DNA of 64,000 nt, taken from NCBI GenBank assembly GCA_964405465.1, contig CAYONZ010000015.1, forward strand, positions 3,721 to 67,720, in the 5' to 3' direction. Shown here in pieces: positions 879-64,000 of the stretch. The DNA is from an uncultured Bdellovibrionales bacterium (GTDB taxonomy: Bacteria > Bdellovibrionota > Bdellovibrionia > Bdellovibrionales > JAMPXM01). Positions within the stretch are counted from its first letter, which is position 1. Each line of letters begins with the position of its first letter. The translations under genes and the position numbers were made by a program. The notes beneath the pieces were generated by a model. It ran no database searches and was not told the DNA's origin. It was given only the letters and a program-made list of their open reading frames with translations.

Positions 879-1015
879 CCGACAAAAGTTGCACCAACTT
901 CAGGTCCCATCGCGAATCATTACGACACATCTTCATGTTCAAATCTGATAAAATCGATATGATTGAGATTTTACAGTTCCTTTGTCCAGAACTTGATCAA
1001 AATGAGAAAAAGTTC

Positions 1016-1042
1016 TCAAGCTTCAGAATGAGACGCCGATCA
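1016..1042 (+). promoter_or_regulatory. candidate sigma-28 (FliA) promoter of flagellin 1
   Basis: TCAA-N15-GCCGATCA compared with the consensus TAAA-N15-GCCGATAA, about 90 nt upstream of the ATG. Confidence 0.35.
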
Positions 1043-1083
1043 GTTAGGCATGAAGTAAGCCCATCGAGCTTTAACCGGCTCAC

Positions 1084-1105
1084 GGAACCTCAAGGAATGA
1101 GGTCC
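1084..1105 (+). promoter_or_regulatory. 5' leader hairpin presenting AGGAA in its loop (CsrA-type site candidate)
   Basis: GGAACCTCA / TGAGGTCC stem with one bulge and loop AGGAA. A second GGA lies in the SD AAGGAGGAGG at 1115-1124. Confidence 0.3.
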
Positions 1106-1128
1106 TGTATCTTCAAGGAGGAGGAAAT

Positions 1129-1974
1129 ATGGGTCTGCGTATTAACACGAACACCGCTTCGCTCAATGCCCAAAGAAATTTAATGGGCACGAAGTGGGGT
1201 CTCGATAAGAGTTTGGAACGATTGTCTTCGGGATACCGAATCAATCGCGCAGGGGACGACGCCGCGGGGCTGGCGATCTCAGAAAACCTGCGAGCCCAAA
1301 CAAGGGGTCTAAAACAAGCCTCACGAAACGCACAAGATGGTGTCTCGATGGTGCAGGTTGCGGAAGGTGGACTGAATGAAGTCAGTTCGATTCTCATCCG
1401 ACTACGAGAACTAGCGGTGCAAGCGGCTTCAGATACGATCGGGCCAGTTGAGAGACAATTCCTCAACGTGGAATACGATCAGCTGGTCTCGGAGGTTGAT
1501 AGGATCGCCGACAGCACTGAATTCAACGGCACACCACTCTTGAGTGGAACGGGATCGATTCTCGACTTTCAAGTCGGTACACGAAACGATCCGAATATTG
1601 ACCGTCTCTCATTTGACGCTTCGAAAGCAGATGCCAACACGGCGGCATTAGGTGTGAACCTAACGAGTGTTGCAGACAAAGCTTCGGCGCAAAATAGTTT
1701 GTCAGCGATTGACCAAGCGATTGTGAGCGTTTCTGCGATGCGAGCCGATTTCGGTGCGATTCAGAACCGTCTACAATCAACCATCGGAAACCTAGCTGTA
1801 TCGGTTGAGAACCTCTCTGCCGCAAACAGCCGAATCCGAGATGTGGATGTCGCTGAAGAGACTGCGGAATTGACTAAGAATAATATCTTACTCAGCGCCG
1901 GCACCTCAGTGTTAGCACAGGCGAATTCGTCGGCTAACACAGCATTGCAGCTCTTGAACAAGTCGATGCAGTAA
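1129..1974 (+). CDS. fliC: flagellin
   Basis: N-terminus MGLRINTNTASLNAQRNL and C-terminus LSAANSRIRDVDVAEETAELTKNNILLSAGTSVLAQAN are canonical flagellin D0/D1 segments. Strong SD upstream. Confidence 0.92.
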   Translation: MGLRINTNTASLNAQRNLMGTKWGLDKSLERLSSGYRINRAGDDAAGLAISENLRAQTRGLKQASRNAQDGVSMVQVAEGGLNEVSSILIRLRELAVQAASDTIGPVERQFLNVEYDQLVSEVDRIADSTEFNGTPLLSGTGSILDFQVGTRNDPNIDRLSFDASKADANTAALGVNLTSVADKASAQNSLSAIDQAIVSVSAMRADFGAIQNRLQSTIGNLAVSVENLSAANSRIRDVDVAEETAELTKNNILLSAGTSVLAQANSSANTALQLLNKSMQ

Positions 1975-2510
1975 GGATTGTACGCAATCTTTAACTGAAG
2001 GGTACGATCCTAACCACCCTCAATAGCGCGACTTGCTCAGAGAACTGAGCGCTGAATTGATGCTATTAAAACGCCATGTCTTAGGACTGGTGGATGACCA
2101 ACACTGTTTCCTGCTCGACGGGGTCTGAAAGACGGCTCCGTTATTCTGCAGTTTCGGCGAGTGTCAACTTCGTTTTCCGAACCTACAGAAAGAGGAACCA
2201 AAAACTGAATATGTTTTCACGTTGAACGTAAGGATTCGATCAACCTTTGTATTTTGAAAAGATTGAATTCAGACACTTTGCACCTGCCTTTGGCTAAAAT
2301 TCAACTCGTGAAGAAAATGATGGAGTTCTGATGAGCGCTCCAATGCCCACCAACACAATCACCCGATTCTGTTTTTCGAAAAAATATCCTGCTACACAAA
2401 CTGAATTTTTGATTTTGAACTCTTTCTCCAAATGCCAGGCATCAAGCTGCAGATCATAGATTCATGGTATTCATCTATACTATATTTGATCCATCCATCC
2501 ACCTCAACGA

Positions 2511-2539
2511 CAAATACAAAATAGATTTTTTCCGATAAA
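2511..2539 (+). promoter_or_regulatory. weak candidate sigma-28 promoter of flagellin 2
   Basis: CAAA-N16-TCCGATAA. The -10 matches 7 of 8 positions but the -35 is poor. It would give a leader of about 200 nt. Confidence 0.22.
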
Positions 2540-2751
2540 TTCCCACAAAATTTGTGTAAACAATATTTGTTTTTTACAAAACTCTAGACTCTATTTTTTT
2601 GTTGGTGTTCCGAAAAGAGATTAGGTGGAGAATAAAAAATATTTTGTCGCACAGGCATCCACCCCTGACGACGCAAATCGCGGTGCACGACGCACCCGTA
2701 GCCCAAGGAAGGCAACATTCAAGGAGGATTAGGTTATGCAGGGAGGATAAA

Positions 2752-3585
2752 GTGGCTTTAAGAATTACAACAAACGTGGCGTCACTGAACGCTCAAAAGA
2801 ATCTCGGGGCAACCCAACACTTGATGGAAAGATCGATGGCACGACTCAGTTCGGGTTTTCGAATCAATCAAGCGGCAGACGACGCCGCGGGATTGGCCAT
2901 CAGCGAAAACTTGAAAGCGCAAATTCGCGGACTCCGTCAGGCTTCACGAAACGCCAACGACGGTATCTCACTTGTGCAAGTCGCGGAAGGTGGTCTCAAC
3001 GAGGTCTCGAATATGCTCATTCGTTTACGCGAACTAGCTGTTCAAGCGTCTTCAGATACTATAGGTGATACCGAGAGAAAATTTACCGACGTCGAATATC
3101 AACAGTTGAAGTCGGAAATTCAACGGATCACTGAAGTGACGTCTTTTAACGGACGCGATTTATTGAACGGAACTGGTGGTTTGATTGATGTACAGGTCGG
3201 AACTCATAATGATGCTTTTAAAGACCGTATCTCTTTCAACGCTTCGGCTGCCAATGCAAGCCTTGAAGCACTTGGAATCACAGTCAACACTGTTGCAACA
3301 AAAGAGATGGCGCAACAGAGTATCGATGTGGTCGACAAAGCATTAGTTTCGGTCAATGCCATTCGCGCCAACTTTGGTGCTCTACAAAACAGGCTTCAGT
3401 CGACGACTGCTAACTTAGCTATCAGCGATGAAAACCTGTCAGCAGCCAACAGCCGCGTACGTGATGCAGACGTCGCAGCAGAAACAGCGGAAATGACTCG
3501 AAACAATATCTTGCTTCAAGCTGGAGTATCAGTCTTGGGACAAGCGAATCAGCAGAGTCAAATCGCGCTTAAGCTCTTGGGTTGA
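2752..3585 (+). CDS. fliC: flagellin (tandem paralog)
   Basis: A GTG start after GGGAGGA gives (M)ALRITTNVASLNAQKNL, which aligns with the start of flagellin 1. The track ORF from 2599 is an unsupported N-terminal extension. The C-terminus LSAANSRVRDADVAAETAEMTRNNILLQAG is conserved. Confidence 0.9.
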   Translation: MALRITTNVASLNAQKNLGATQHLMERSMARLSSGFRINQAADDAAGLAISENLKAQIRGLRQASRNANDGISLVQVAEGGLNEVSNMLIRLRELAVQASSDTIGDTERKFTDVEYQQLKSEIQRITEVTSFNGRDLLNGTGGLIDVQVGTHNDAFKDRISFNASAANASLEALGITVNTVATKEMAQQSIDVVDKALVSVNAIRANFGALQNRLQSTTANLAISDENLSAANSRVRDADVAAETAEMTRNNILLQAGVSVLGQANQQSQIALKLLG

Positions 3586-3610
3586 TGGAAATAGCACTAA
3601 GGAGAAACTT

Positions 3611-3691
3611 ATGAAGGCAATGATCATTGAGTGGTCTGGTTCAGTTCTCACAGTTGCTCTCTCGGGAGCAGCGCTGTACCTTTCACTCTAG
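3611..3691 (+). CDS. candidate 26-aa hydrophobic small protein (MKAMIIEWSGSVLTVALSGAALYLSL)
   Basis: ATG preceded by AAGGAGA at 3598-3604. It lies between the flagellin stop and the terminator. Too short for the ORF track. Confidence 0.3.
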   Translation: MKAMIIEWSGSVLTVALSGAALYLSL

Positions 3692-3701
3692 TCTATCAAG
3701 G

Positions 3702-3727
3702 AGGCCCCTTAGGGGGGCCTTTTTTTA
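3702..3727 (+). terminator. rho-independent terminator
   Basis: AGGCCCC-ttagg-GGGGCCT stem-loop followed by TTTTTT. Confidence 0.8.
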
Positions 3728-3864
3728 CTAAACTAAACCTAGCGAGCCACTTCCCACCACATTCTAAGCACTCAACAGGTGAATTCCTGCGCTTCGACTG
3801 CCAGATCTGAGCTTCATCGGCTTTTTTTTCTTGCAGAATCCGCAACTCAATCGTAAAAAAAATT

Positions 3865-4155
3865 ATGAAAAAAGATTATTCACCACTCGGACAACTCCTA
3901 AAAGACGGTCGTGTTGCTGCTGGCCTTACACAAGCTGAAGTTTCAGCAAAGCTTGGCCATGCAACTCCCCAATATCTTTCCAATTGCGAACGTGGACTTT
4001 GCGGCCTGCCATTACAAGCAATTCGCAAGCTCATTGATCTTTACAACTTGGATCAGACTCAAGTTCTTAAAATTTTGATGGATGAACAAGAGCGTATTAT
4101 CAAGGCGCAGTTGTTTAAAAAAGAAGTATCGAGAGTAAAAAAAGCCAAAGCTTAA
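3865..4155 (+). CDS. XRE-family helix-turn-helix transcriptional regulator
   Basis: GLTQAEVSAKLGHATPQYLSNCERG is a typical Cro/C1 HTH. Confidence 0.75.
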   Translation: MKKDYSPLGQLLKDGRVAAGLTQAEVSAKLGHATPQYLSNCERGLCGLPLQAIRKLIDLYNLDQTQVLKILMDEQERIIKAQLFKKEVSRVKKAKA

Positions 4156-4201
4156 ATATAGATTGGGCAAATCTGCTCGATCTCTTTCTCCGGGAGGGTC
4201 C

Positions 4202-4900
4202 ATGCTTTCGACGGCAACCGAAACACAGAGCTTCGACCAGGAACTAGTCGATCTACTTCAAGATGTGGCAAGGCTCGCTAAAGCATATAGAGCCCCAATC
4301 AGAGCCGTTCCTCTCAACTTCAAAGAAACATTAAAGAATCTCTCCCTTGAGCAAGTTGCCGCAATGAAGACCTGTCTTCGCTTTGTACGGGACACAACTC
4401 TGCGCGCTTGCGGACCTGGCGGTGAGCTTCCATCCGAGCAAACGCTTTTAAAGTCGGCTCTAGAAAGCCTTGGTCTGGAACCGATGTCTGATGATCTTTA
4501 TTCTACGCTTGAACATGAAGACATTATCGAGGTTCATGATCTTTCAGGAACACAGATCTATCGAAATTTCGAGGCCTTCAATCTCATTAGCTTCACCCTT
4601 TTTGATTTGATGGCAAACCCTTGGTACACGCTTTATTCACGACCGCAGTTGGCCAGCGAAGCCATTCAGCGCCGAATGCTAGAGCTTATGAGTAGTCCCA
4701 AAGGTGTAGAGGATGCCAAAATTCCAGATCACTTGATCACGGAACTTGAGGTTGAAATGCCCCGGTCCATTTTACTGAGCTTTAAAAAAGTGGCCCCTCT
4801 GCGTAGCAAGGCCACTGGAGAAATCGCTGCATTTTTTTCGACGAAATCAGCTCGCTTGATTGCTCACGGAGAAGAAACGAGCAAGATTGCCTTTATTTAA
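4202..4900 (+). CDS. hypothetical protein
   Basis: ORF with GGGAGGG before the ATG at 4202 (the track ORF starts at 4163). No family recognised. Confidence 0.5.
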   Translation: MLSTATETQSFDQELVDLLQDVARLAKAYRAPIRAVPLNFKETLKNLSLEQVAAMKTCLRFVRDTTLRACGPGGELPSEQTLLKSALESLGLEPMSDDLYSTLEHEDIIEVHDLSGTQIYRNFEAFNLISFTLFDLMANPWYTLYSRPQLASEAIQRRMLELMSSPKGVEDAKIPDHLITELEVEMPRSILLSFKKVAPLRSKATGEIAAFFSTKSARLIAHGEETSKIAFI

Positions 4901-5533
4901 TTCTTCACGAACCGCGGGATCAGCAGCTTGTAATAAGACCTCTCTATACAATACAAGAGACTGATCGAAATTTTTCTTCACAATTTCTTGGGTTTCAGCC
5001 GGGAGTCCTTGTAGAAACTGAAGGGCATGAGGAAAATGGTCTTGATCCACTTCTTCATGAAGAGCAAGAAACTTACAAGCCTTTCCCATTCCGGCGGCAT
5101 TTACCTTTTTTAAAATTTGTTTTGAGTAAAGATAAGTTAACCCCTCAAGCACTGTGATGTATCCAAACATTGCCATTGGATTGACGTGTTGAATTTGAAA
5201 AAATTGGATTTCATAGAAGTTTCTCGTCTGGGGAGCTTCAGGGTATTGGTCAAGTCGAGCCCCCAAGCAATGCAGATCTTGCTTCAAAAGATGCTCATGC
5301 CCCTTTTCTTCTGTCGCATGGTCAATAAAGCGAACTCTAATTTTTTCGAGAGATTTATCGCAGTTTCCAGCAACCAAACAAAGCAGCTGGTGAGTGTGAT
5401 CTACATAATGGTAGGTTTGGGCTAGATAATTAATATAGAACTCTCGATTTTCCCAAGGCAGGCTTAATGCAAACTTTCCGAAATCGGCCAATTGACTCTC
5501 TATATATTCTCTTAAAATCATAGACACCCCCAT
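4847..5533 (-). CDS. heme-oxygenase-like fold diiron oxidase / iron-containing redox enzyme family protein (tentative)
   Basis: All-helical protein with paired carboxylate/His motifs (HATEEKGHEHL and LALHEEVDQDH), as in HO-like diiron enzymes. The start is at 5533 or 5521. Confidence 0.45.
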   Translation of the reverse strand: MGVSMILREYIESQLADFGKFALSLPWENREFYINYLAQTYHYVDHTHQLLCLVAGNCDKSLEKIRVRFIDHATEEKGHEHLLKQDLHCLGARLDQYPEAPQTRNFYEIQFFQIQHVNPMAMFGYITVLEGLTYLYSKQILKKVNAAGMGKACKFLALHEEVDQDHFPHALQFLQGLPAETQEIVKKNFDQSLVLYREVLLQAADPAVREELNKGNLARFFSVSNQAS

Positions 5534-5579
5534 ATTCGTTTTGTGCAATCCGGCCATTAGAAAAATCCAGTTCAATCGC

Positions 5580-6302
5580 TTAGGAAGCTCGGGCAAATAC
5601 CGGACGATCTATATTGACCGCGTATTTTCGCTTTCGCCAAATTTCCATTACAGCCATTCTGGCCTTTGGGTGTTCAATTGGCTTGTGGTTCTCTTTGGTC
5701 AAAACGATCAAATCAATTTCAAGTTTCGAGGGTTCATGAAAAAATGTATGTAGCACTCTTGCGCCCAAATTTTCTGCCATTTTCGTTACACCAAGATTTT
5801 GCCGGGTCGACCCTAACAAAGCCTCCGCATCACTTTCAAGAAATCTTTCACACAAGAGTGCACCAAGCAGATCCTTTACTGAAACTCCCCCAGTCCGCCC
5901 ACGCCAATTCGGATGAACCGTTGTATGGCTCGAAACCAAAAACTTTTTCCCAAACTTTTCTAAAACACCGTGAGCTTCTGGACGCCAGAGTGTCGAAAAA
6001 TAGCCGTCCTCTCGGTTTGCTGGAAGAGAGAAATCGACAAAGTCCATGAGCATGACCGCAACACACTCTGCTCCGTAAAATATGGCAAGAATTTCATCTT
6101 GTCGGAGAAATGAGTCGGACGTTTGTTGATGATTGGGTTTGCGCTCTTGCCAAAATTCTTGCCAGACATTCTTCCACATAGAATAGGCACTATTGTAGTC
6201 GCGAACAAACTCATTTGACGGATTTTTTCCAGGAAGAATCACAACTCTAAATAGCGACATATTCAATCTAAACACCTTAGACTCAGTGGAAATCTCACTC
6301 AT
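5580..6302 (-). CDS. GNAT-fold acyltransferase, N-acyl amino acid synthase / LuxI-like (tentative)
   Basis: Start at MSEIST after GGAGG. Overall resemblance to Acetyltransf_5 / autoinducer-synthase-like proteins. Not a confident family call. Confidence 0.35.
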   Translation of the reverse strand: MSEISTESKVFRLNMSLFRVVILPGKNPSNEFVRDYNSAYSMWKNVWQEFWQERKPNHQQTSDSFLRQDEILAIFYGAECVAVMLMDFVDFSLPANREDGYFSTLWRPEAHGVLEKFGKKFLVSSHTTVHPNWRGRTGGVSVKDLLGALLCERFLESDAEALLGSTRQNLGVTKMAENLGARVLHTFFHEPSKLEIDLIVLTKENHKPIEHPKARMAVMEIWRKRKYAVNIDRPVFARAS

Positions 6303-6633
6303 ATTTTCCTCCGAATGCATACGTCTCCATTTAGCGCACAACACAAACGTTGGCACACCACTATGCAGACAATTGACACATTCTTAACTAAATAGTTTTT
6401 ATTGATACAGCTCACTATCGATTCTGAGTCACTCGATCATAAGATTCAAGAGTCAGTGTTAAAATTCCCAAAATTTCTTCACATATTGACAAGCTTTATT
6501 TATAACTATTTTTTATTTAGACGTAGGTATTTTAAGGACTTAGTAAAATCATATTTTAAAAAAACTGACTAATTTTTGATATCTCATCTAGAGACTTCGA
6601 TAGAGGCATTGTGCCAATTCGACACAATTCGAA

Positions 6634-7389
6634 CTAGAATTTCATAAACTTTATTAAATCCGCCATCGCTTGCGGATTATCCCAAGGAACTCGGTGGCCA
6701 GCTCCAGATACAATTGATAACCGCTGAGTCGCAGGTTTATCTATTTCGGAGAGAACTTTGGTGAACTTTTGATCTCGCTCGCCACATATCCAATGAATTG
6801 GCACTGAAACCGATTGAAGTTCTTTTCGTAGGTCTCTCTGCAAACCAAGCGACCAATTCTTCAGCGCCCAAGACAAGGTCAGCCTATCAAAATCGGCCTC
6901 ATCGCGACGCAAGTGCCTTTCACTTGCTACTGACGAGGCAAGTACCTCTTGCGAATTCCACTCATCAACGATCTCATGCCACTGCGATGAACAAAATTTA
7001 TTTGCCCAATTCGCGTCATTGTCTCGGCGCTGCTTTCGCAGCTGTTCATCCCATTCTGCAAGACCAGGATGTGCTGATATGAAGACTGCTTCAACAAAAC
7101 GCGACGGCGCCATGAGGAGAATATGCATCGCGAGCCGTCCACCCAGAGAGTAACCCACTAGTAATGGTTTGACCGGGTCTTCAACAATCTCAAGTGTCTT
7201 CAAAAAACTTTGTGCAAAAAAATCGAAAGCATTGTCTTCTGAGGAACACTGAAATGAACTGGCATTGGTCTTTATCCATTGCCATAGATCAATCGCTTCG
7301 ACCTGAACATCCTTGCCCCACTCGAGCCGGTTCCAGTCGGAAGGCAATCCCAAAAAACCATGAATGACTACAATGCGACGTTTTTCCAA
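6634..7389 (-). CDS. menH: 2-succinyl-6-hydroxy-2,4-cyclohexadiene-1-carboxylate synthase (alpha/beta hydrolase)
   Basis: HGFLG and GYSLGG nucleophile elbow. Overlaps the menD 3' end by 22 nt. Confidence 0.75.
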   Translation of the reverse strand: MEKRRIVVIHGFLGLPSDWNRLEWGKDVQVEAIDLWQWIKTNASSFQCSSEDNAFDFFAQSFLKTLEIVEDPVKPLLVGYSLGGRLAMHILLMAPSRFVEAVFISAHPGLAEWDEQLRKQRRDNDANWANKFCSSQWHEIVDEWNSQEVLASSVASERHLRRDEADFDRLTLSWALKNWSLGLQRDLRKELQSVSVPIHWICGERDQKFTKVLSEIDKPATQRLSIVSGAGHRVPWDNPQAMADLIKFMKF

Positions 7390-9089
7390 AGGGCCTCAAA
7401 TTGCGAGTTGAAGTTTTTAGATTGTTGCGCGTCTGGGCGAATTTCAACAACACGCCATCCACGATGGCCTCGCCCCTCGATCTCCCCTTGGCGACAGACG
7501 TTTTCCACTGACTGCCAACACTCGTAAGAAAGATTCCACATTTCTGCCCATTTTCGAAAATCTAGCTGATGATTATTTTGAAAAAGCTCACTTCGAAATA
7601 TTCCTTCGAAGATCTTGCCGCCAGCATTATTCATCACCACAATTGTTCCACTATCTGCTTCAAGACATGGCAAGATCCAAGGCGCCTCTAAATTGTAAAG
7701 TGTCGTGAGGTCACCAAACAAACCCCAGTTATGAACCTTGGCGCGAGCTAAACCCAAAAATGTCGAGATCTGGCCATCGATACCATTCACTCCCCGATTT
7801 GCATCGACCACTATACGTTTCACTCGTTGGCCAAAATTATCCCACTGGCGAATGGAGAGGCTGTTGCCAACATACATAATGTCGTCGCACCCAACCAATT
7901 TGGATAAATGGAAAACCATGGAAGCTTCCGAATTAGAATATCGCTGCAGCAAATCTTTCACTTGTTTTTCAATACGCGAGTCAAGCGCCAGAAGATCTGA
8001 ACTGGACGAATCCGTTGGAGCCTCAGCCAGAGACATTCTCAGCGGAATTGCACCTTCCAACATCATCGCCGAAATGGCGCTCAATGGGGTTTGCAAAAAC
8101 CATCCTCGCCCCAAGCCAGCAAACTCAAGATGGTGAATCGAAAGAACTGAAACAGGACAATTGGCATTGTCCAAATCACGCCAAACCCTTACCGTTGGAA
8201 CTCCCCCCAAACGGAGAACCCCATCATAAAGACGCTTATGCAAGCCAAGACTAAGAAGTCGGTCGCCCGATTTTATTGCGAAAGGATTTAGGTCTGGATC
8301 CTCCCGCAGTCCTGACGTACCTTCCAGGTAAACAGGAAGTTTAAGACTCAATAATATTTGTTTACATGCGGCCTGCTCTACAGCAGAGCACAACGTCCCC
8401 ACAATCACCACAGGTGATTTTGAACCGTTGAAAAAATCTTGAAAAGAATCCACTATCGTTTTTGCCGGGATTTTTTTTTGTTTTACAAAATCGACAGCAA
8501 CCGAAAACTCCTCTGCCAGCGAGACTAAGTCTAGAGGTTCAATTGGACCATCAAGCAAGGGTTCATCAAAGCAAATATTGACATGAACTGGGCGAGACGA
8601 TTCCAAGTCGGCCAAACTCAAATTCAACGGCTCATTTTCAAGATCAAAAGCTTGGGCTACATAATGGCTAAAAATTCCAGGCTGCACGATGGACTGAGGA
8701 GCTCCCGTTCCCCGCAAACGTTTCGGCCTGTCTGCCGTCAATAACACCAGTGGAACGCCTGAATAAAATGCCTCGACTGTTGCCGGAAGTAGCTCTGCCA
8801 CCGCAGTGCCACTCGTGGTAATAACGGCCACCGGGCGTTGGGTCGCTCGAGCTCTACCTAATGCAAAAAATCCAGCCGAACGCTCTTCAAAAAATGACCA
8901 GATTTTGAAGCCTTGAGTTTTTTCGAGTTGCATGATCAGCGGAGCATTGCGAGCTCCAGCACAGAAGATCACATCGCGAACGCCAGTCCGATAAAGTTCC
9001 TGCAGTACCTGTCTCGCCAATTCAATATTTGAATTTGGACCGCACCTCAAATCACCCGATGCTAAATTTGGAACTACTTGATTGGTCAT
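7368..9089 (-). CDS. menD: SEPHCHC synthase (ThDP-dependent)
   Basis: Length and sequence are typical of MenD (GVRDVIFCAGARNAPL, TSGTAVAELLPA). It sits between menF and menH. Start taken at MTNQVV. Confidence 0.88.
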   Translation of the reverse strand: MTNQVVPNLASGDLRCGPNSNIELARQVLQELYRTGVRDVIFCAGARNAPLIMQLEKTQGFKIWSFFEERSAGFFALGRARATQRPVAVITTSGTAVAELLPATVEAFYSGVPLVLLTADRPKRLRGTGAPQSIVQPGIFSHYVAQAFDLENEPLNLSLADLESSRPVHVNICFDEPLLDGPIEPLDLVSLAEEFSVAVDFVKQKKIPAKTIVDSFQDFFNGSKSPVVIVGTLCSAVEQAACKQILLSLKLPVYLEGTSGLREDPDLNPFAIKSGDRLLSLGLHKRLYDGVLRLGGVPTVRVWRDLDNANCPVSVLSIHHLEFAGLGRGWFLQTPLSAISAMMLEGAIPLRMSLAEAPTDSSSSDLLALDSRIEKQVKDLLQRYSNSEASMVFHLSKLVGCDDIMYVGNSLSIRQWDNFGQRVKRIVVDANRGVNGIDGQISTFLGLARAKVHNWGLFGDLTTLYNLEAPWILPCLEADSGTIVVMNNAGGKIFEGIFRSELFQNNHQLDFRKWAEMWNLSYECWQSVENVCRQGEIEGRGHRGWRVVEIRPDAQQSKNFNSQFEALWKNVAL

Positions 9090-9131
9090 TCTATTTCGCC
9101 ATCTCACGATCCGTTTCAACTTCAAAAAATA

Positions 9132-10241: not shown

Positions 10242-10319
10242 TATTTATCCTCTAGAGTTGACTTCAAAATTGACTTGTAATCTGGTACTTTCACTCTGTC
10301 ACTAAGGAATAAAGCAGTT

Positions 10320-11174: not shown

Positions 11175-11217
11175 AGAAAAACATGCTTAGTGATACAAAA
11201 ATAAATAGGACTTATTT

Positions 11218-11979: not shown

Positions 11980-12063
11980 AGCTGCGAAATAGCTTTGAAA
12001 CAAATGTGAAATGGGCATTTATAAATTGTTTGTGCGACATCACGGCTCGAGTGAAGCCAAAAA

Positions 12064-13902: not shown

Positions 13903-14049
13903 GTGCCCTCACATTCGACTCATTTGCTACTCAAATAATAATAGACCCCAGTTTCAAGAAAAAAGGCAAGTCGATATAGTTTGATTTGCCCTCGATCAGC
14001 ACTTTGAATGCCAGACAATTTACAGCTCAATAGAAAAAGGAGATTCAAG

Positions 14050-19612: not shown

Positions 19613-19647
19613 AACAGAGAAGACCTAAATAAACTCTTGTATTGAGT

Positions 19648-49847: not shown

Positions 49848-49903
49848 CGGCAACGCCCAAATACTCCAAATTTGTTTGGGCCAACTCGGCTCGATACGAC
49901 CGA

Positions 49904-49940: not shown

Positions 49941-50132
49941 CAGTGATTGCGGGCACAAGAGATCTAAGCCGTGGACCGGGCGCGCGAGGCGTTAGATGGA
50001 ACTGTCCGGGATTCCGGCTACATTTTTTTTTGTAATTCTGCTAAACCCTCAGGCACACTAAGTCGCACCATTTTTCTAATCACCTGCAGGAGGATTCGCG
50101 TGGGCACATCAAAATCAGAAGTTTGGATAAAA

Positions 50133-50933: not shown

Positions 50934-50939
50934 TTTTAA

Positions 50940-54471: not shown

Positions 54472-54522
54472 ACGCCGATTCCTAATTCGGAAAAAAATGA
54501 TTTCACTAAAAAAGAAATTTGC

Positions 54523-57357: not shown

Positions 57358-57546
57358 ATCTTAGCTATCGGGAAAATTCACACATCGCTCAACTCGCCAT
57401 TGGTTGGGTATGCGTTCATTTGATTCAACCCTTGGAACTGGATGACGTTCATATTTGGTTTGAGACTTATCCAGCCCTGCATAACGCATATATAAATAAT
57501 AAATATTTGCAGGCTTTTGGTCCTGAAGGCAAAAGAGTGTGTTAGA

Positions 57547-58368
57547 ATGAGTGACATGAATACTTCGACTTTAGTTCCCAATGGTCAAAAATTTGAATTT
57601 CTTCTTCACTTCATTCACTCTCCTCATGGCATTAGCTGGAGAAGCCCGAGTGCGTTGGCGCTCTCGGCTCTTGCCAATATCATCTCTGGGGAAACCCTAT
57701 TTCCGGGCCATTCGATTGGTCATGTCCATGTCGAGTTGAAAGCGCGCGATTTAAAAAAACGTTTTTTTACTAGTATTACAATCGACAATCAGAATCAGTA
57801 CTATGATGTTTTGGTGAAAAAGAGGATTGGTTTTGGCATTCTCTTTCATCGTTTCAAAGGGCGACTCGAATCACCAGAAGAAATTCAAGCCAGCCTCAAC
57901 CTAGCTCAGCGACAGAGACGATTGCAAACTTTACGGCTGGCGATTTCTGCTGAGGCGTTTGCTCGCGCCGAAGAGTATCTCACTCAACTTCTTCAAATAA
58001 AAAATAGCCTTCAGTATGGATTTCCTTGTGAACCCCGAAAACGCGAAGGAGCAGGATGTACCGCCTTTGCCATGAGCTTTCTTGAGGTGATGGGAGTTTC
58101 TCTACCAGACTTTTCACAGTGGCAACAAACCATTCACGTTCCGCTTGACTTAATTGGTGAAGGCTTCAGGAAGGTTTCGCTTCTCGAAACGGTTGCATCG
58201 CCTCGCGCGTTCTCTTGGGGCAAACCTGAAGAATCCCAGACTCTTCGATTTTGGGATCCAGACCTTATGTTCCATTGGGCAAAGAAAAGAAGCGAAAATC
58301 GAAACACAGTGCTGATCGATGCCAAAGACCAAAAAGTGAGTTCTGATTCAATTTGGCTAGAAAATTAA
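57547..58368 (+). CDS. hypothetical protein
   Basis: ORF with the ATG at 57547 (track start 57517). A conserved-looking His (GHSIGHVHVE) precedes a Cys (GAGCTAFAMSF). No confident family. Confidence 0.4.
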   Translation: MSDMNTSTLVPNGQKFEFLLHFIHSPHGISWRSPSALALSALANIISGETLFPGHSIGHVHVELKARDLKKRFFTSITIDNQNQYYDVLVKKRIGFGILFHRFKGRLESPEEIQASLNLAQRQRRLQTLRLAISAEAFARAEEYLTQLLQIKNSLQYGFPCEPRKREGAGCTAFAMSFLEVMGVSLPDFSQWQQTIHVPLDLIGEGFRKVSLLETVASPRAFSWGKPEESQTLRFWDPDLMFHWAKKRSENRNTVLIDAKDQKVSSDSIWLEN

Positions 58369-58477
58369 GTCCTGTCTTTTGATTTTTCACTTTAACCTTC
58401 TCGACTGAAGTAGTGAGCACCCAAAGGACAATGCATTTCTAATTTAAATATACTGACTCATTTTATAGTATTAAAGA

Positions 58478-59479
58478 ATGCGACGACTTTTCTTATTCAT
58501 TTCAGTCTTGGTTTACTTTCCCTGGACGTCTGCAAATCTCAGTCAGAGCGAATGCCCAAAGTCTGACCTCTCTTCTTGTTTTGGGATAAATCGAGAAAAT
58601 GGAAATGCCGACTGGTGTTGGGCCAATACTGCTGCAGATCTTATTGGTTGCTTTCAAAAGGTGGGACCGCTCAATCGGATCTCAACTCTCGATGTCGCGG
58701 CGGCACAACTCTCAATAGACTCAAATACTCTGCAAAGCACGATCGCTTCGATCGGCAATCACGATTTAAGTGCTTCCACGCACTTTTACCACGAACAAAT
58801 AAAAGAGGATCGTAAACAATTGCAATTTCGTCCATTGCGGTCCAACTTCAACTCCGTTTTGGCATCTATTGTTGGATATCAAAAACGATCAGGGTATTGC
58901 CTTGAGAAAGACTTTGCCATTGATATCAAACCGACAAATCCCAGTTATATTTCAGAATATCTCAATGCAATGGTCGGCAAGCCTTCCACCTTTTTAACAC
59001 AACTCAAAATCAAAAATGATTGCGATCCACTGGCTTCTATTGATGACCTCAATAGCTTTACCTACTTTCTCAATTCAGAACTTCGCGACAAGATCGAGGA
59101 AGATCTCATGCAAAACTGTAAACCCAGAAAAAAAATGAAACCGATGCTGCCTATTTACTATTCCTTCAGCGGTACCCAACAAGATATCTCCCAGGTTCTT
59201 ATTGAAAATCTCAGGAAAGGAGTGCCCTCGGCGATCGGTTACGACCTCAATCTTCTTAGGGAAAAAAAATATTCAAACATTGCCACCCATGCAGGTACGG
59301 TCATTGCTTCTCGTTGGAGTCACGGCCACTGTGAATTTAGAGTTCGCGACGGTAACGGCGCAGACTGCACAATTTATCCGAAGAGACTAAGACAGAAATG
59401 TTCGCTTGGAAATATTTGGCTATCAGAAAACGAGCTCAACAGCTCGGTAGAAAACATAACCTGGATAGCCTCACCCTAG
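58478..59479 (+). CDS. secreted protein, possible papain-like cysteine peptidase
   Basis: Signal peptide. NADWCWANTAADLIG resembles a papain-type Cys helix, and later THAGTVI and NIWLSENE could be the His and Asn. Weak. Confidence 0.35.
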   Translation: MRRLFLFISVLVYFPWTSANLSQSECPKSDLSSCFGINRENGNADWCWANTAADLIGCFQKVGPLNRISTLDVAAAQLSIDSNTLQSTIASIGNHDLSASTHFYHEQIKEDRKQLQFRPLRSNFNSVLASIVGYQKRSGYCLEKDFAIDIKPTNPSYISEYLNAMVGKPSTFLTQLKIKNDCDPLASIDDLNSFTYFLNSELRDKIEEDLMQNCKPRKKMKPMLPIYYSFSGTQQDISQVLIENLRKGVPSAIGYDLNLLREKKYSNIATHAGTVIASRWSHGHCEFRVRDGNGADCTIYPKRLRQKCSLGNIWLSENELNSSVENITWIASP

Positions 59480-59534
59480 CAGTGCACCCTTGAAGCTAGC
59501 TCGACTAAGTCGCCGATTCCGCTCAGACATTGAT

Positions 59535-59885
59535 CTAATAATTCGATTTCTTTTCTGGAGCGGTGGCAACTTTGGCCTTCTTCATCATTTTTGCGCATTC
59601 TTCTTTTTTCATTGTCTCTTCGCATTTACCCATCGCCTCATGATCACAAACCTTTGCATCTTTGTGCATTTTCTTGCATTCGTGCATCATCGCCATCATT
59701 TGATCAGTGTCCATCATGTGCCCCATCATATCAGATTTCATCTGACCGTTAGGAGACCCTTTCGAAACGGTTTCTTGGGATTGCGCCTGTGCGGCCGGTG
59801 CCTCTCCTTCAGCTTGAGAAGCTCTAACCAAGACAAAAATGGTTAACATGAAAACCGACATAATGAACATCCAATTCATTTTCAT
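59535..59885 (-). CDS. secreted Met/His/Cys-rich protein (putative metal-binding)
   Basis: Signal peptide followed by MKSDMMGHMMDTDQMMAMMHECKKMHKD-type composition. Confidence 0.55.
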   Translation of the reverse strand: MKMNWMFIMSVFMLTIFVLVRASQAEGEAPAAQAQSQETVSKGSPNGQMKSDMMGHMMDTDQMMAMMHECKKMHKDAKVCDHEAMGKCEETMKKEECAKMMKKAKVATAPEKKSNY

Positions 59886-60132
59886 ACAAACTCCTTTTAT
59901 TTCTTCAGTTCATCTGAAGACCGAAATGTAATTTCATATCGAAGACTAAGTATTGCGAACCCCATACTCAAAACAATAAATCTTGACATCCTCTTGGCAT
60001 TTGCACGATTCACTCCGACTCTTCCTTCGCATCTGCAAATTTGTCCGGAGATTCTCAAATTGAGAATCTTTGAATCCTTTTGCGGGTTGCTGACTCTAAT
60101 AGAAAACGTTCATTAACCAAAAAGGAAACAAT

Positions 60133-60342
60133 ATGTTTTATATAAAGAATCTACCGACCGGAGAGCGCGTCGCTCGTGTGACTATTTCAATCCTCGCGGC
60201 CATAGCGGGAGCCGCACAGTTTGGGCTGGGTATGTACGGGCTGATGATCATCGCTTCTTCTGCGATGTTCGCTGTTACAGGGTTTGTTGGATGGTGTCCA
60301 ATGTGTGCCATGGCTGGACGAAAGATAGCAAAAAAATCATAG
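60133..60342 (+). CDS. DUF2892 (YgaP-like) small membrane protein
   Basis: Two TM helices ending in GWCPMCAMAG. Confidence 0.6.
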   Translation: MFYIKNLPTGERVARVTISILAAIAGAAQFGLGMYGLMIIASSAMFAVTGFVGWCPMCAMAGRKIAKKS

Positions 60343-60404
60343 TTTGACCTCAAGGAGTTGTGAACTGAAAATCAATTCACAACTCTTTTTGCAAACTTGT
60401 TGAG

Positions 60405-60962
60405 GTGCAATTGCCACTCCAAAATGAAGATGAAATTTTAAAACTCGCAAGTGCCGGAGACGCAGCCGCAATCGCCGTGCTTATTGAACACTATCAACCT
60501 GACCTTAAAAAATTTGCCTCCGGCGTTTGTCAAACTTCAGAGGACGCAGAAGATGCCGTCCAGCACACGCTTTTTGTTATTTCGACTAAAATCTCGGGAT
60601 TTCGCAAAGCTGCGAAGCTCACCTCTTGGCTGTTCACTATTGTGTAGAATGAATGTCTCCGTTTTTTAAACAAACGTCTTCGCCACGTTGAAATTGACGA
60701 TTCGATCGTCGACCCAGATCTTTCGGCTGTTGAAAAACTATCTGAGCACGAACTCCTAGCGAAAGTACAACAAGCCTTCGAAGAGCTAGAACCTCTTTAT
60801 CGAGAGGTATTTATTTTGCGTGACATTGAAGGATTAAGCGCACCTGAGGTGAGCGAAAGACTCGGCATTTCGATCACGGCAGTGAAGTCAAGACTCCACC
60901 GCGCCAGAAACGAAGTGAGACAAAGTTTCATTAATCCCGCAGCGCGTTTGTCTGGAGATTAA
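60405..60962 (+). pseudogene. ECF-family RNA polymerase sigma factor interrupted by an in-frame TAG at 60645-60647
   Basis: Region 2 (DAEDAVQHTLFVISTKISGF..LTSWLFTIV), then TAG, then NECLRFLNKR and region 4 (YREVFILRDIEGLSAPEVSERLGISITAVKSRLHRARNEV) continue in the same frame to the TAA at 60960-60962. Confidence 0.7.
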
Positions 60963-61138
60963 ACATAACTATAAAGTCGAATCTATAAAAAGCGAATGCC
61001 AATAATCGACGATTCCGTGAATGTTTCAGGGGACTGAATGCAATGGTAAACAGCCCCTTGAAAGTTTTTTTTGCGCGTGATGCCGGGACTCAAAACCTGT
61101 CGCTTGCCAAGCACCCGATCTAATTTCATAATTTTGAA

Positions 61139-61714
61139 ATGCAAAACACAAATACAAATTCGCTGGAACAGTCGTTGGGTCCGTTGGCAAAACTCGTTGG
61201 CAAGTGGGAGGGTTCAGTCGGTGACGACACCGCACCCGCTGACGATCGTGGAGTTGAAAAAAACAGCTATAAAGAACTCATGATCTTTACTCCATTTGGC
61301 CCCACAAACAATCACGAGCAAACTTTATTTGGGCTTAGCTACAATCGCACAGCCTGGAGATTGACCGAAGACCAACCCTTTCATGAACAAGTCGGCTATT
61401 GGCTTTGGGATGCTGACGCACAATTGATTATGCATTCATTTATGATACCGAGAGGCATGACCGTTTTAGCTGGAGGGGCCTGTGAGGCAAATGCAAACAC
61501 CTTTAAAGTGAGTGCCACTCTGGGCTCGAGTACGTTTGGCATTTGTTCCAATCCTTTTCTTGATCGTGAATTCAAAACAGTCCAGTACGATTCCACTATA
61601 ACCCTAACAGACCCGACAACTTTGATCTATGAAGAGAACACACAGATCAAAATCAAAGATCAAAACAAAATATTTAACCACATTGACAAAAATATTTTAA
61701 AAAAAATTTGTTAA
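61139..61714 (+). CDS. nitrobindin-like / DUF1794 beta-barrel protein (tentative)
   Basis: N-terminal LAKLVGKWEGSVG and a beta-rich pattern. Confidence 0.45.
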   Translation: MQNTNTNSLEQSLGPLAKLVGKWEGSVGDDTAPADDRGVEKNSYKELMIFTPFGPTNNHEQTLFGLSYNRTAWRLTEDQPFHEQVGYWLWDADAQLIMHSFMIPRGMTVLAGGACEANANTFKVSATLGSSTFGICSNPFLDREFKTVQYDSTITLTDPTTLIYEENTQIKIKDQNKIFNHIDKNILKKIC

Positions 61715-61733
61715 CCGAAAAAAGGAACATCAA

Positions 61734-62108
61734 ATGATTAAAGGGTATCGAGATTTCTATTATAACGTTGCCGACATGAATCGTGCTGTTCGATTTTATA
61801 CTGAGGCACTAGGTTTAAAAAAAGCACATGGCGATGAGTATTGGACTTCGATGACTTTGGGCAACTTGAATCTCGGTTTGCACTGGACTGAGGGCGACTC
61901 TGTTCCTATCTCGCCCAGAGATTCACATGGATGTCATAACGGCGGCACGCTCACTCTTGAGTCAGACAATGTCCCTAACGACAGAAAAAACATTGAGAGT
62001 GCTGGTGGTAAAATTCTGAGTGAGTCTAAACAAGAATGGGGGCACATGCTTGTATTCGAAGACCTCGATGGGAATGTCTTAAAGCTTATGAACCCCACAC
62101 ATTTTTAG
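61734..62108 (+). CDS. VOC (glyoxalase/bleomycin-resistance) family protein
   Basis: 124-aa protein with FYTEALGLK..GGTL..FEDLDGNVLKL, typical of the VOC fold. Confidence 0.75.
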   Translation: MIKGYRDFYYNVADMNRAVRFYTEALGLKKAHGDEYWTSMTLGNLNLGLHWTEGDSVPISPRDSHGCHNGGTLTLESDNVPNDRKNIESAGGKILSESKQEWGHMLVFEDLDGNVLKLMNPTHF

Positions 62109-62170
62109 AATTTTTAAGATCAAGATTTTGATGGCGCCTGTTTTGCAAATTCAAATCTTCAGGAGAATCA

Positions 62171-63457
62171 GTGAAGATGAGATCTGCATTAATTGCAACA
62201 GGCGGAATTTTACTGTCGATTTTTTTGACAGAGACAGGGCACGCTTCGGCAACCAAACCGCTGCCAGTTGCTCTTTCATTATTGAGGAGCCTTGCTGCTC
62301 ACGCAACAGCTTCGACTGAGGTCGATCAAGCGTCAACTGCCCAAGCCTGTATCAGCGTCCCGATCGAAGATCCTTTGGTAAAAGGCCGAGCAAGAATGGT
62401 CAGATTCCCCAACGGACGCTCCGTCACAGTTGTCGGACATGTCCATGGGAGCAGACAGATCTATGAGATTGGTGCGCTCATAAAAAATTCTCGCTTAATG
62501 CAAATGTCAGATGCAGAATTCGACACTCTACTGTTTAGAATCATGAATGAAAATCGCCGGGTTGTTCCAATCGGCGCATCTAAAGAGACGAAACAAAGCG
62601 CTGTCAACTTTTACAAGAAGAAATTCAATATCGATTTTAGTGACTTACTCCATCCAGAAAATGGACTCGATCTACCTGAAGTCACCTTTGAGCGACACGC
62701 CATTGAAGATTTTCGCTATTTGCATCAACTCTTGGGTCAAAAGAACTCGAGTATTCAATTTGTCGGATATGAGGGCACCCAGCGAACTTGGGCGAGCAAT
62801 CTTCCATTTTATTTGCGAACTCGCCAGGTCCTTTTAGAACAGTTCGCGCTTCGAAAGAGTCGAGGCCAAATCAAGTTCAGCGAGTACTACCTTGATCCGC
62901 TCCTTCTATCGAGCTCAAATGGCAATGCCTATACCTACATGGTGAATCCTCAACTCATATTAAAGGTCCCGATGGTTGGAACCGAAGATGAAGCCGTAAC
63001 CAGTGATCCTAAGAATGCAGATCCTCTAGAAAAAATGTCCCAGGCCCTAAATAGGCTTAAGGCTGCGGGCGATACCTACCTTGATTCCCAAACCAAAATA
63101 GAAAAAAAGCGCCTGTTCAATGAGCCGTCACTTATCTCGTTCTTCGTATTGGCCCTCAATGCATACAGCGAGGTGGAAAACATGAGCTTTGTCTCCGAGG
63201 CTGATTTAGAGGTTCAGCTCACCCAATTGCGTGCGAAGACTCCTCATTGGCTCAAAGGCGAAGTGGAAGAATTGATTGAGACATTTAGGGAGCGCGTGAG
63301 AATCAATTTTTTGCGAGATGAGGCCTCAGCCAGAAATCTTGTTGGATTAAATAAAACAGGAATTCACTTTGTCGGTCTCAATCACTTTCGAAACACCGTA
63401 AGAAATCTCGAAAATCTCTGTAAACAAGAACAGAACCACGCACAGATCTTTTATTAG
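62171..63457 (+). CDS. hypothetical secreted protein
   Basis: 428-aa ORF with a signal peptide. No family recognised. Confidence 0.45.
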   Translation: MKMRSALIATGGILLSIFLTETGHASATKPLPVALSLLRSLAAHATASTEVDQASTAQACISVPIEDPLVKGRARMVRFPNGRSVTVVGHVHGSRQIYEIGALIKNSRLMQMSDAEFDTLLFRIMNENRRVVPIGASKETKQSAVNFYKKKFNIDFSDLLHPENGLDLPEVTFERHAIEDFRYLHQLLGQKNSSIQFVGYEGTQRTWASNLPFYLRTRQVLLEQFALRKSRGQIKFSEYYLDPLLLSSSNGNAYTYMVNPQLILKVPMVGTEDEAVTSDPKNADPLEKMSQALNRLKAAGDTYLDSQTKIEKKRLFNEPSLISFFVLALNAYSEVENMSFVSEADLEVQLTQLRAKTPHWLKGEVEELIETFRERVRINFLRDEASARNLVGLNKTGIHFVGLNHFRNTVRNLENLCKQEQNHAQIFY

Positions 63458-63475
63458 ATAGATTGGGAGTATACC

Positions 63476-63811
63476 ATGATTCAAAAATTTTTCTTGTCAC
63501 TGTTATTGATGCTAAATTCCACCTCCGTCTTAGCAGAACAAAAAATCAGCTTGGCAACAGGTGAAAGTCTGGTCCTCTGTGCAAACGACACCGAAGACCG
63601 GCAAACTGGAGTCATGACATCTGGGCTTTCGCGGTTGAATATGGTGTTGCTTCAATCCCAGGTCTCCACTCAAGCTGGGGTAACCGAGCAGGTCACCCTT
63701 AGAATTGATCGGCCATTTTCAGTTTCTGCACCCGCAGTCCTGCTCGTTGAAAAAACGAGCCCCTCAGGAAATACGCTTTTCAACTATTGCGTGACTCTGA
63801 CCAAAAAATAA
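63476..63811 (+). CDS. hypothetical small secreted protein
   Basis: 111-aa ORF with signal peptide (MIQKFFLSLLLMLNSTSVLA). Confidence 0.4.
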   Translation: MIQKFFLSLLLMLNSTSVLAEQKISLATGESLVLCANDTEDRQTGVMTSGLSRLNMVLLQSQVSTQAGVTEQVTLRIDRPFSVSAPAVLLVEKTSPSGNTLFNYCVTLTKK

Positions 63812-63817
63812 GTGGCT

Positions 63818-64000
63818 TCACATCGGAATTTGACCGAGCTGTCGAGCCTTCGCCCTTTCTTTGACTCGCTCCTTGTCACCAGCGCGATTGAGCTTCTCAA
63901 GCATATGGTCAACAATGTCGGCAAGTGCCTTGTACAAATTTGAATCAGACTTAGTGACAACAATGCCACGAAACCGACCATTCGAAACATGAAACTTTAC
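63818..64000 (-). CDS. ribosome hibernation factor (RaiA/HPF family), 3' part; the 5' end lies beyond the window
   Basis: My own translation of the minus strand gives VKFHVSNGRFRGIVVTKSDSNLYKALADIVDHMLEKLNRAGDKERVKERAKARQLGQIPM-stop, which matches the HPF C-terminal beta-strand and helix. This frame is not in the ORF track because it has no start codon inside the window. Confidence 0.6.
   Translation of the reverse strand, partial: VKFHVSNGRFRGIVVTKSDSNLYKALADIVDHMLEKLNRAGDKERVKERAKARQLGQIPM

Follow-up and report, generated by a model that had tools for sequence, protein, structure and literature searches.

The 64,000-nucleotide stretch analysed here (the window), taken from contig CAYONZ010000015.1 of an uncultured Bdellovibrionales bacterium, is densely coding according to Pfam annotation, has a GC content of 44.7% and carries one 10-mer, GGGGACGGAG (reverse complement CTCCGTCCCC; hereafter the G-form and the C-form of the motif), that is by far the commonest in a k-mer count, with 27 exact copies. 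A scan of the 64 kb allowing at most one mismatch found 33 copies (27 exact and 6 at 9/10), and 31 of them (25 exact and 6 at 9/10) lie in a dense zone or halo of 25.7 kb at 24666..50382, which extends from 10.7 kb upstream to 14.3 kb downstream of a gene at 35333..36049 (+) for a RAYT-like Y1 (HUH) transposase of 238 aa, as judged from its HUH and tyrosine motifs, NCBIfam and its predicted fold. RAYTs are tyrosine transposases with a Y1/HUH fold associated with repetitive extragenic palindromic (REP) sequences. To the left lies a motif-free zone A (879..24665), with two flagellin genes, menH/D/F, the genes for DAHP synthase and UDG, ubiE, aro genes and dpp genes, and to the right a motif-free zone C (50383..64000), which comprises the 3′ part of menB, menA, menC, menE and genes for unknown proteins, and runs on for at least 3.3 kb past the window. 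The only two copies outside the halo within the window are those at 808 and 869.

The emptiness of 879-24665 and 50383-64000 had been claimed in an earlier sequence-only reading of this DNA and was borne out exactly, the one-mismatch scan detecting 0 copies in these zones, together 37.4 kb. No copy was found either in the ~3.3 kb past the window end that are covered by a Logan contig of the same organism (L082), so that native housekeeping DNA in and beyond the window is free of copies across 40.7 kb. For the dense zone, the same reading had given the right coordinates and 30 copies, one fewer than the 31 found here, and its Poisson chance of about 1e-8 for the empty 37.4 kb becomes 4e-9 when recomputed at the window mean. 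The chance that 33 uniform points miss a fixed 37.4 kb is 2.6e-13, and an analytic bound that includes the post hoc choice of the interval is still ~2e-8. When 33 uniform points were simulated 200,000 times, 31 of them never fell inside 25.7 kb, the smallest span being 28.2 kb. Moreover, no decayed copies were seen in the empty zones when two-mismatch matches were counted against a third-order Markov model: the counts stand at chance level, with 7 in zone A vs ~7.6 expected and 8 in zone C vs ~4.0, while the 25 exact copies of the dense zone compare with ~0 expected under the same model. Given the simulations, the post hoc bound and the lack of decayed copies, the patchiness is confirmed as real. 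It is well illustrated by the menaquinone genes at the right edge, where, as had been noted before, menB (49971-50933) has a copy at 50373 and menA, menC and menE (50940-54471) have none.

When the 33 copies are aligned in one orientation, the information content is confined to the ten bases and a weak 3′ extension YYC ([CT][CT]C) in this genome, and neither a shared flank nor a common hairpin was found among them. A flank GAGGCGAYAAAA...GCCTCC is common to the copies at 32720 and 36375, and a longer palindrome surrounds only few copies, namely these two and some on the metagenome contig L161. Open reading frames (ORFs) contain about 26 of the 31 halo copies, 18 in sense and 8 in antisense orientation, with the three reading frames used about equally; seven copies of the window are intergenic, including the one at 35220, which is 5′ of the true RAYT start. 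Inside the halo, the 10-mer thus occurs in all frames and on both strands at ~1.2 per kb, with a ratio of exact to one-mismatch copies of 4:1. Three pairs form inverted doublets (808/869, 29756/29772 and 49906/49929). Since information is limited to ten bases and a weak extension, flanks are unrelated and all frames are used, we regard the motif as an oligomer-level signal and not as a MITE (miniature inverted-repeat transposable element) or a classical REP. A literature search for the literal motif returned chance primer matches only.

The transposase gene sits in the longest ORF at 35204-36049; homologues begin at M44, which places the gene at 35333-36049. Its translation contains the HUH motif SNHFHQI and the tyrosine motif YIEANPIRAG, and H67/H69 (HxH) and Y128-x3-N-P are invariant in 26 homologues. 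NCBIfam REP_Tyr_transpos matches with E=2.7e-8, below the equivalog cut-off, and Pfam gave no match to the window's own protein even at E=1; the identification therefore rests on homologues, two of which pass the Pfam Y1_Tnp cut-off, on NCBIfam, on the conserved motifs and on the predicted fold. A profile search of the PDB returned 4ER8 only, as a weak match. The AlphaFold2 model (pLDDT 92.8) shows an extra C-terminal helical extension of ~90 aa, and its best solved match in Foldseek is again 4ER8, the TnpA-REP of Escherichia coli (target-normalised TM-score 0.69), followed by the IS608 and ISDra2 TnpA proteins. The family is small: at E<1e-5, 5.8 billion proteins yielded 88 clusters, the majority from metagenome-assembled genomes (MAGs) of Bdellovibrionota, and JGI names some homologues “REP element-mobilizing transposase RayT.” Homologues are encoded, e.g., in GCA_964612425.1, GCA_021731045.1, GCA_041391365.1 and GCA_947372815.1, and the genome of P0122 has a RAYT of 79% identity. 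Searches of plasmids and phages with the RAYT protein yielded transposases of 23-30% identity or nothing, and no second or degenerate RAYT gene was found in the 64-kb window, where one was sought as a possible cause of a further density peak at 46-50 kb. Judged by its sequence and modelled fold, the gene at 35333-36049 is a single divergent RAYT, i.e., a domesticated transposase, within the dense zone.

The association of gene and motif recurs elsewhere. Six loci were fetched by RAYT homology alone (L208, L210, L212, L214, L218 and L219; each 20 kb, covering ±10 kb); they derive from other Bdellovibrionota with GC contents of 34-48%, and their RAYT proteins are 35-54% identical to that of the window. 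In 6/6 of them, the exact GGGGACGGAG ranks among the top 10-mers beside the RAYT gene, for a chance expectation per locus of ~0.002 by our own base-composition estimate. Relative to the gene, five copies lie within ~350 nt in L214 (the two upstream ones inside a wrongly called 5′ end of the ORF), four from -823 to +255 in L219, five from -2.3 kb to -0.17 kb in L208, six from -6.8 kb to +0.44 kb in L218, nine from -1.6 kb to +4.6 kb in L212, and 16 from -1.9 kb to +6.0 kb in L210, where they reach into gatA, ligA and dus. The outer parts of all six loci are motif-free and hence give no sign of genome-wide motif-rich donors. A scan of metagenomes for inverted motif pairs gave 120 loci, mostly chance GC-rich hairpins with the seeded pair only; the densest contig from this motif-only scan, L153 (50.5% GC), holds 17 exact copies in 13.6 kb together with a RAYT of 42% identity. 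When the six loci, the window and L153 are pooled, the neighbouring genes differ in every genome and the RAYT is the only gene common to all eight loci, which argues that the motif accompanies the RAYT gene instead of marking a place on the chromosome. The 3′ extension is lineage-specific (CTC in L212, GTC in L218, [TC]A in L153 and YYC in the window's genome). Spread from the RAYT locus, one of the explanations offered by the sequence-only reading, is supported by these data, as the dense zone encloses the sole RAYT gene of the window and the same 10-mer surrounds the gene in all six RAYT-seeded loci.

Distance and strand of the copies are likewise organized around the gene. The pooled density amounts to 2.25 copies per kb within 0.5 kb of the RAYT gene; it drops to 0.35 per kb between 5 and 10 kb and to 0.06 per kb farther away than 15 kb. 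In the six RAYT-seeded loci taken by themselves, 40 copies are closer than 5 kb and 3 fall between 5 and 10 kb (binomial p = 6e-9). The halo of the window (-10.7 to +14.3 kb) is the largest among the loci seen, and ~80 kb of non-halo DNA of the same genomes contain almost no copies. Within 500 nt, upstream copies are on the RAYT sense strand in 9/9 cases and downstream copies on the opposite strand in 9/9 cases (eight loci), meaning that the G-form points toward the gene from both sides and that orientation flips at the RAYT gene. In the window, these canonical flanks are represented by the upstream copy at 35220..35229 (+), which precedes the start codon by 104 nt and has its G-form on the RAYT sense strand, and by the downstream copy at 36375..36384 (-), a 9/10 match reading AGGGACGGAG 326 nt past the stop codon, which lies within the coding sequence of an ABC ATPase in a GGAGGC/GCCTCC hairpin; opposite-strand downstream copies are found at +216 to +349 in the other RAYT loci. 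Further downstream, at 0.5-5 kb, 29 copies are on the opposite and 5 on the same strand, while upstream copies split 8:8 and those beyond 5 kb are randomly oriented. This polarity is independent of the sense of the host gene, the copies being antisense in ligA and dus of L210 and sense in the transporter genes of the window.

How the intragenic copies arose can be read from alignments to homologous proteins. The menB copy at 50373..50382 (+), with which the halo ends on the right, specifies G-D-G-V inside the conserved segment VGxDGVPR; none of 42 homologues shows an indel there, and the copy in the RNase R coding sequence at 29168..29177 (-) gives WGTE at aa 382 in place of YG(K/G)x, in a gap-free block of a conserved segment. 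Four copies in nadE align to PDB 3ILV without gaps: GDGV vs NEGV at 46790..46799 (+), LGTE vs IGAT at 47707..47716 (+), GGLS vs GGIA at 47952..47961 (+; a 9/10 copy) and LRPP vs LRPS at 48089..48098 (-). A further 9/10 copy in the inter-domain linker of NadE, at 47284..47293 (+), is not among the sites evaluable for indels. Three LigA copies of L210 also align without gaps to the E. coli protein, one of them inside the DSPTQRV segment of the latter. Conserved residues are often altered by the copies, and some of the changes are non-conservative. As 9/9 evaluable intragenic sites (one in menB, one in RNase R, four in NadE and three in L210 LigA) fall in gap-free alignments, these copies arose in place by base substitution and not by insertion. 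Such substitution within coding sequences, rather than the insertion of REP elements, was unforeseen by the earlier reading.

Taken together, we consider the patch to be a local halo centred on the RAYT gene, with GGGGACGGAG as the cognate repeat of the divergent RAYT at 35333-36049, and give this reading a probability of roughly 0.7. The motif would then be patchy because its copies form a local halo around a single RAYT gene instead of a chromosome-wide spread. As to the mechanism, the RAYT protein might prefer to act in cis, on single-stranded DNA close to its gene, which is probably exposed on the lagging-strand template, as for its IS200/IS605 relatives, and single-stranded GGGGACGGAGYYC or its complement is a candidate substrate. 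Repair or fixation could be biased toward the recognition sequence, by which near-matches in the vicinity would be turned into exact sites in a kind of local molecular drive, and occasional REPIN-like inverted doublets may transpose further off. The more far-reaching proposal, that a domesticated HUH transposase spreads its site by rewriting nearby host DNA, coding DNA included, via templated or biased substitution in cis and not by transposition of an element, is a tentative one, and we would sooner doubt it than rely on it.

Several observations weigh against a RAYT-centred halo or the drive proposed for it. We know of no HUH chemistry that writes a 10-mer by substitution, which makes the drive step a conjecture. 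Near-cognate sites within the halo are not depleted, so this test of the conversion model was uninformative. In the window, the density does not fall smoothly with distance from the gene, a second peak of mixed orientation standing 10-14 kb downstream (10 copies in 46.2-50.4 kb), and the doublet 808/869 sits 34 kb away from the RAYT gene. Four motif-rich metagenome loci (L181, L161, L106 and L183) had no RAYT gene in the stretch fetched, and two of the eight pooled loci, the window and L153, had been chosen because of the motif. The excess of G-forms on the locally G-rich strand outside the canonical flanks (57 vs 30) hints weakly at a preferred use of the lagging-strand template; as an indicator of replication direction, GC skew measured over 14-20 kb is a weak proxy. 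Finally, only ~67 kb of the window's organism are covered, and dense patches far from any RAYT gene could therefore still exist.

Among the alternatives, local selection via linkage survives best, even if we consider it improbable. Here, copies would be favoured only when linked to the RAYT gene, e.g., by aiding survival or recombination of the RAYT-bearing segment or by protecting flanks after RAYT-induced breaks, and the halo would reflect the length of recombination tracts instead of enzymatic writing by the protein in cis. Its radius of ~10-14 kb is indeed comparable to bacterial recombination tracts, the origin of copies by substitution is what would be expected of selected point mutations, and the inward orientation near the gene could fit a Chi-like geometry around a break at the RAYT locus. 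However, for an exact 10-13-mer to be built up from several substitutions 25 times in 25 kb, each site would have to be under very strong selection, and some of these substitutions are non-conservative (LigA, NadE and RNase R). Furthermore, the motif is the same in genomes ranging from 34 to 50% GC and is tied to the RAYT flanks, which points to the enzyme's own site and not to a host Chi; the latter would be genome-wide, yet the ~80 kb of non-halo DNA are almost motif-free. The Chi-like reading of the inward orientation was accordingly rejected, the motif being absent outside halos.

A second alternative turns the question around, such that the empty zones would be recently acquired or accessory DNA in an otherwise motif-wide genome that uses the 10-mer in the manner of a DNA uptake sequence (DUS) or uptake signal sequence (USS). 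An exact 10-mer in all frames at ~1.2 per kb, the 4:1 ratio of exact to one-mismatch copies and the terminator-like inverted pairs would suit such a signal, and the closest menB homologues come from Verrucomicrobia (85%) and not from Bdellovibrionales (78%). We nevertheless hold it very unlikely. GC content and GC content at third codon positions (GC3) are the same in all three zones, and by codon use and tetranucleotides (motif masked), the dense zone separates no more than arbitrary contiguous blocks do in rotation controls; under the same controls, tests by composition for foreign origin or for a chimera were negative. In the relatives L035 and L037, ubiE and the genes for DAHP synthase, menF, menD, menH, menB, menA, menC and menE stand in one cluster, so that genes of zones A and C are contiguous there, and adjoin dense-zone genes; in four Bdellovibrionales MAGs, the dense-zone genes for Nth, the solute-binding protein, the permease and the ATPase adjoin menB. 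From uniform composition and shared gene order, we conclude that empty and dense zones are both native housekeeping DNA, in agreement with the earlier remark that a split into core and accessory DNA does not fit, the men genes of both empty zones being syntenic with those of relatives. Also the six other genomes, in which the motif keeps within a few kb of the RAYT gene, speak against an uptake signal.

Import of the dense zone as a tract from a motif-rich donor, or a chromosome-domain mark, had both been raised by the sequence-only reading and are now disfavoured to the point of being quite implausible, landmarks of the parS, matS or KOPS type included. The boundaries are sharp, and the right one lies inside the highly conserved menB, a plausible anchor for recombination. 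In a search with RNase R, the named relatives were Bdellovibrionota or Bdellovibrionales. No motif-rich donor was seen, however: the closest relative covered, whose RNase R is 67% identical, whose GC content is 62% and in which RNase R and UbiB stand in the same order, has no motif copy; similarly, none of 80 menB loci from a scan of 185,579 species genomes carries the motif (best match 85% identical), and the outer parts of the RAYT-seeded loci are motif-free. Against a domain mark stands the gene neighbourhood, which differs in all eight loci with only the RAYT shared. That the assembly is a chimera of motif-bearing and motif-free organisms is barely credible: the source is a MAG contig, one boundary falls in menB, which is conserved enough to mislead assemblers, and no independent contig obtained spans either boundary, but the succession of copies, empty, dense and empty would take at least three misjoins, composition is uniform across the window, independent Logan contigs (SRR12487046) reproduce four window stretches, and the RAYT-centred pattern recurs in other assemblies.

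Compared with known systems, the RAYT-centred halo is closest to the REP/REPIN-RAYT systems, for which published work describes palindromic, mostly extragenic REPs or REPINs of 20-40 nt that are dispersed over the genome (PMC5581495, PMC3733652, PMC6006769), including E. coli TnpA-REP with its REP sequences and bacterial interspersed mosaic elements (BIMEs) and the REPINs of Pseudomonas (Bertels and Rainey, 2011, PMC3116915; Bertels, 2017, PMC5581495). Shared features are one Y1/HUH gene with a TnpA-REP-like fold, a cognate short repeat inverted on both sides, some copies arranged as hairpin-capable inverted doublets (808/869, 29756/29772 and 49906/49929) and a RAYT gene that is not on plasmids or phages. 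Nunvar 2010 is reportedly part of the same literature. Repeats of such systems number tens to hundreds per chromosome and have a GTAG or CGTC head, and the RAYT gene is a vertically inherited single copy. In contrast to the published systems, the conserved unit is 10-13 nt long and lacks both a consistent palindrome of 20-40 nt and a GTAG head, ~26/31 halo copies are intragenic, with a substitution origin at the sites evaluable, copies cluster within ~15 kb of the gene in the sampled DNA, apart from the distant doublet 808/869, and the protein, with its C-terminal helical extension of ~90 aa, falls below the NCBIfam equivalog cut-off. Because protein and flanking repeats agree with a REP/RAYT system, while a common palindrome and a mostly extragenic placement were not found and the copies look local, we regard the locus as a variant of this system and not as an ordinary member.

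A class of REPs tagged with CGTC deserves mention in this context, which has the tag at one end, a stem of 8-9 bp, a loop of 4-5 nt and a CCA tail, and for which no flanked RAYT gene was found (Di Nocera et al., 2013, PMC3733652). CGTC is likewise part of the C-form CTCCGTCCCC, and REPs inside coding regions are documented (PMC3733652). Those intragenic REPs, like the RPEs reported with them, are insertions that add amino acids (PMC3733652). The copies described here, unlike CGTC REPs and RPEs, replace existing codons without gaps. To our knowledge, writing by substitution into nearby housekeeping genes has not been reported for known REP/RAYT systems.

DUS and USS are exact oligomers of 9-12 nt that occur in all frames and on both strands at ~1 per kb and arise by point substitution at permissive protein positions; their inverted pairs act as terminator-like hairpins, and they are genome-wide and depend on a competence receptor. 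The anatomy of the copies inside the halo resembles that of the Neisseria DUS GCCGTCTGAA or the USS of Pasteurellaceae, whereas a genome-wide distribution over core genes was not found, the motif being confined to the RAYT neighbourhood. The motif is also unlike Chi, KOPS, parS and matS in being tied to the RAYT gene, in occurring in different neighbourhoods in eight loci and in flipping its orientation at the RAYT. With the IS200/IS605 family, whose chemistry is single-stranded and coupled to replication, the protein shares the catalytic fold (IS608 and ISDra2 TnpA), and the lean of the G-form to the G-rich strand, the presumed lagging-strand template (57:30), would also be compatible with this kinship; unlike these elements, the locus has no tnpB, no defined subterminal hairpin ends and one gene copy in the window, and its repeats run kilobases into host genes, far past any element ends.

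Regarding the individual copies of the window, the distant pair consists of the left arm (808..817, -) and the right arm (869..878, +) of an intergenic inverted doublet. On its left side, the halo starts with an intergenic copy at 24666..24675 (+), in a terminator-like hairpin GAGGGGACGGAGCCCCTC followed by a T-run. RNase R has two more exact copies in its variable linker, at 29756..29765 (-) and 29772..29781 (+), which are the arms of a perfect palindrome of 14+14 nt, and a 9/10 copy in its N-terminal region (30129..30138, -). The palindrome (GGGGACTCCGTCCCC...GGGGACGGAGTCCCC, 29749-29788) lies in frame in the variable N-terminal linker and has a minimum free energy of ~-34 kcal/mol. Between RNase R and a GNAT-NUDIX gene, inside the halo, stands a tRNA-Leu(CAG) at 30353-30439, the only Rfam/tRNA match in the window. 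Upstream of the RAYT gene follow a copy antisense in the GNAT-NUDIX gene (32163..32172, +) and two in a methyltransferase coding sequence, one at its 3′ end (32720..32729, -) and one at 33546..33555 (-).

Downstream, the ABC ATPase holds a second copy (36509..36518, -; 9/10), the ABC permease one (37295..37304, -) and the solute-binding protein four (38277..38286, 38621..38630, 38963..38972 and 39097..39106, all -). Antisense copies follow in a GNAT gene (40673..40682, -), in the ORF 41668-42609, which matches no family (41762..41771, -, and the direct pair 42221..42230, -, and 42242..42251, -), and in a PilZ gene (45912..45921, +; 9/10). This putative ORF of 313 aa has the highest GC3 of the window (0.535), and its three antisense copies encode APSP, TPSP and APSP. 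An intergenic copy lies between the PilZ gene and nadE (46186..46195, -), another copy in the ORF 48666-49847 for an unknown protein (49555..49564, +), and the left (49906..49915, -) and right (49929..49938, +) arms of an intergenic inverted doublet just 5′ of menB.

The menaquinone cluster is split in the window, an inverted group of ubiE, the DAHP synthase gene and menF/D/H (6634-11979) lying ~38 kb from menB/A/C/E (49971-54471). The break beside menB coincides with the doublet 49906/49929, and the other breakpoint (~6.4-6.6 kb) is without the motif. The closest homologues of menB, from Verrucomicrobia MAGs with 83-85% identity ahead of ~78% in Bdellovibrionales, could stem from an old transfer or simply from how strongly MenB is conserved. 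Zone A contains tandem flagellin genes (1129-1974 and 2599-3585), the first of which is 93.6% identical in protein to a flagellin of the 62%-GC relative mentioned above (L206, 5839-8144), while RNase R and UbiB of this relative are only 67% and 63% identical to those of the window. Its flagellin genes adjoin RNase R-UbiB, where the window has ~22 kb in between (zone A, an OsmC-like gene and a NIF3 gene). In addition, a 615-aa ORF (16683-18530) beside aroB joins a shikimate kinase (SKI) domain to an N-terminal shikimate dehydrogenase domain in an apparent aroK-aroE fusion.

Further variation was observed in the other loci. The halo of L210 contains five copies of a variant GGGGACGCAG (8086, 8865, 9795, 12889 and 13905) beside the canonical motif, and AGGGACGGAG is the commonest variant in L153. 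In L214 (10001-10822; also L215 and L216), the called RAYT start lies inside the upstream repeats, the N-terminus MGTEERNGGEMGTKWGRNGDG being translated repeat, and the real start of the L214 protein is probably the downstream MRLSRYQ; the spacing of the downstream repeat varies between samples with an identical RAYT protein (+349 in L214 and +335 in L215). In L161 (Ga0256407_10000453, 412-13673; 44.6% GC), the core forms part of the loop in a REP-like palindrome of 34 nt, ATGGTCCCaGGGGACGGAGTCgaGGGACCAT, that occurs 10 times over 14 kb, and L199 has a similar element built on TGATCCC...GGGATCA, with no RAYT gene in the fetched part. The L161-type palindrome may be a classical hairpin-bearing relative of the bare 10-mer. 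High-GC contigs (63-66%) carry short tandem arrays of the motif with a period of 16-20 nt (L197, 1776-1902; L106, 2301-2390; L152, 5800-5848), an example being GGGGACGGAGGTC plus 7 nt.

If nearby host DNA is indeed rewritten by the transposase in cis, this would represent a local, enzyme-driven molecular drive that reshapes neighbouring housekeeping proteins, and the first RAYT with a bare 10-13-mer containing CGTC as its cognate repeat. Should the writing be enzymatic, a relative of transposases would be altering host DNA in a new way, and essential genes, such as those for LigA, NadE, RNase R and MenB, would have a new source of amino-acid change. To the question of how RAYTs give rise to REPs and propagate them, the locus contributes a repeat cut down to a core of 10-13 nt, new copies of which can be dated against conserved proteins, and a process that is local, directional near the gene and based on substitution, which puts constraints on any mechanism of REP creation and spread. 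Moreover, where an oligomer is strongly enriched in one part of a bacterial genome, this can point to a RAYT gene close by, and neither foreign DNA nor an uptake signal has to be assumed.

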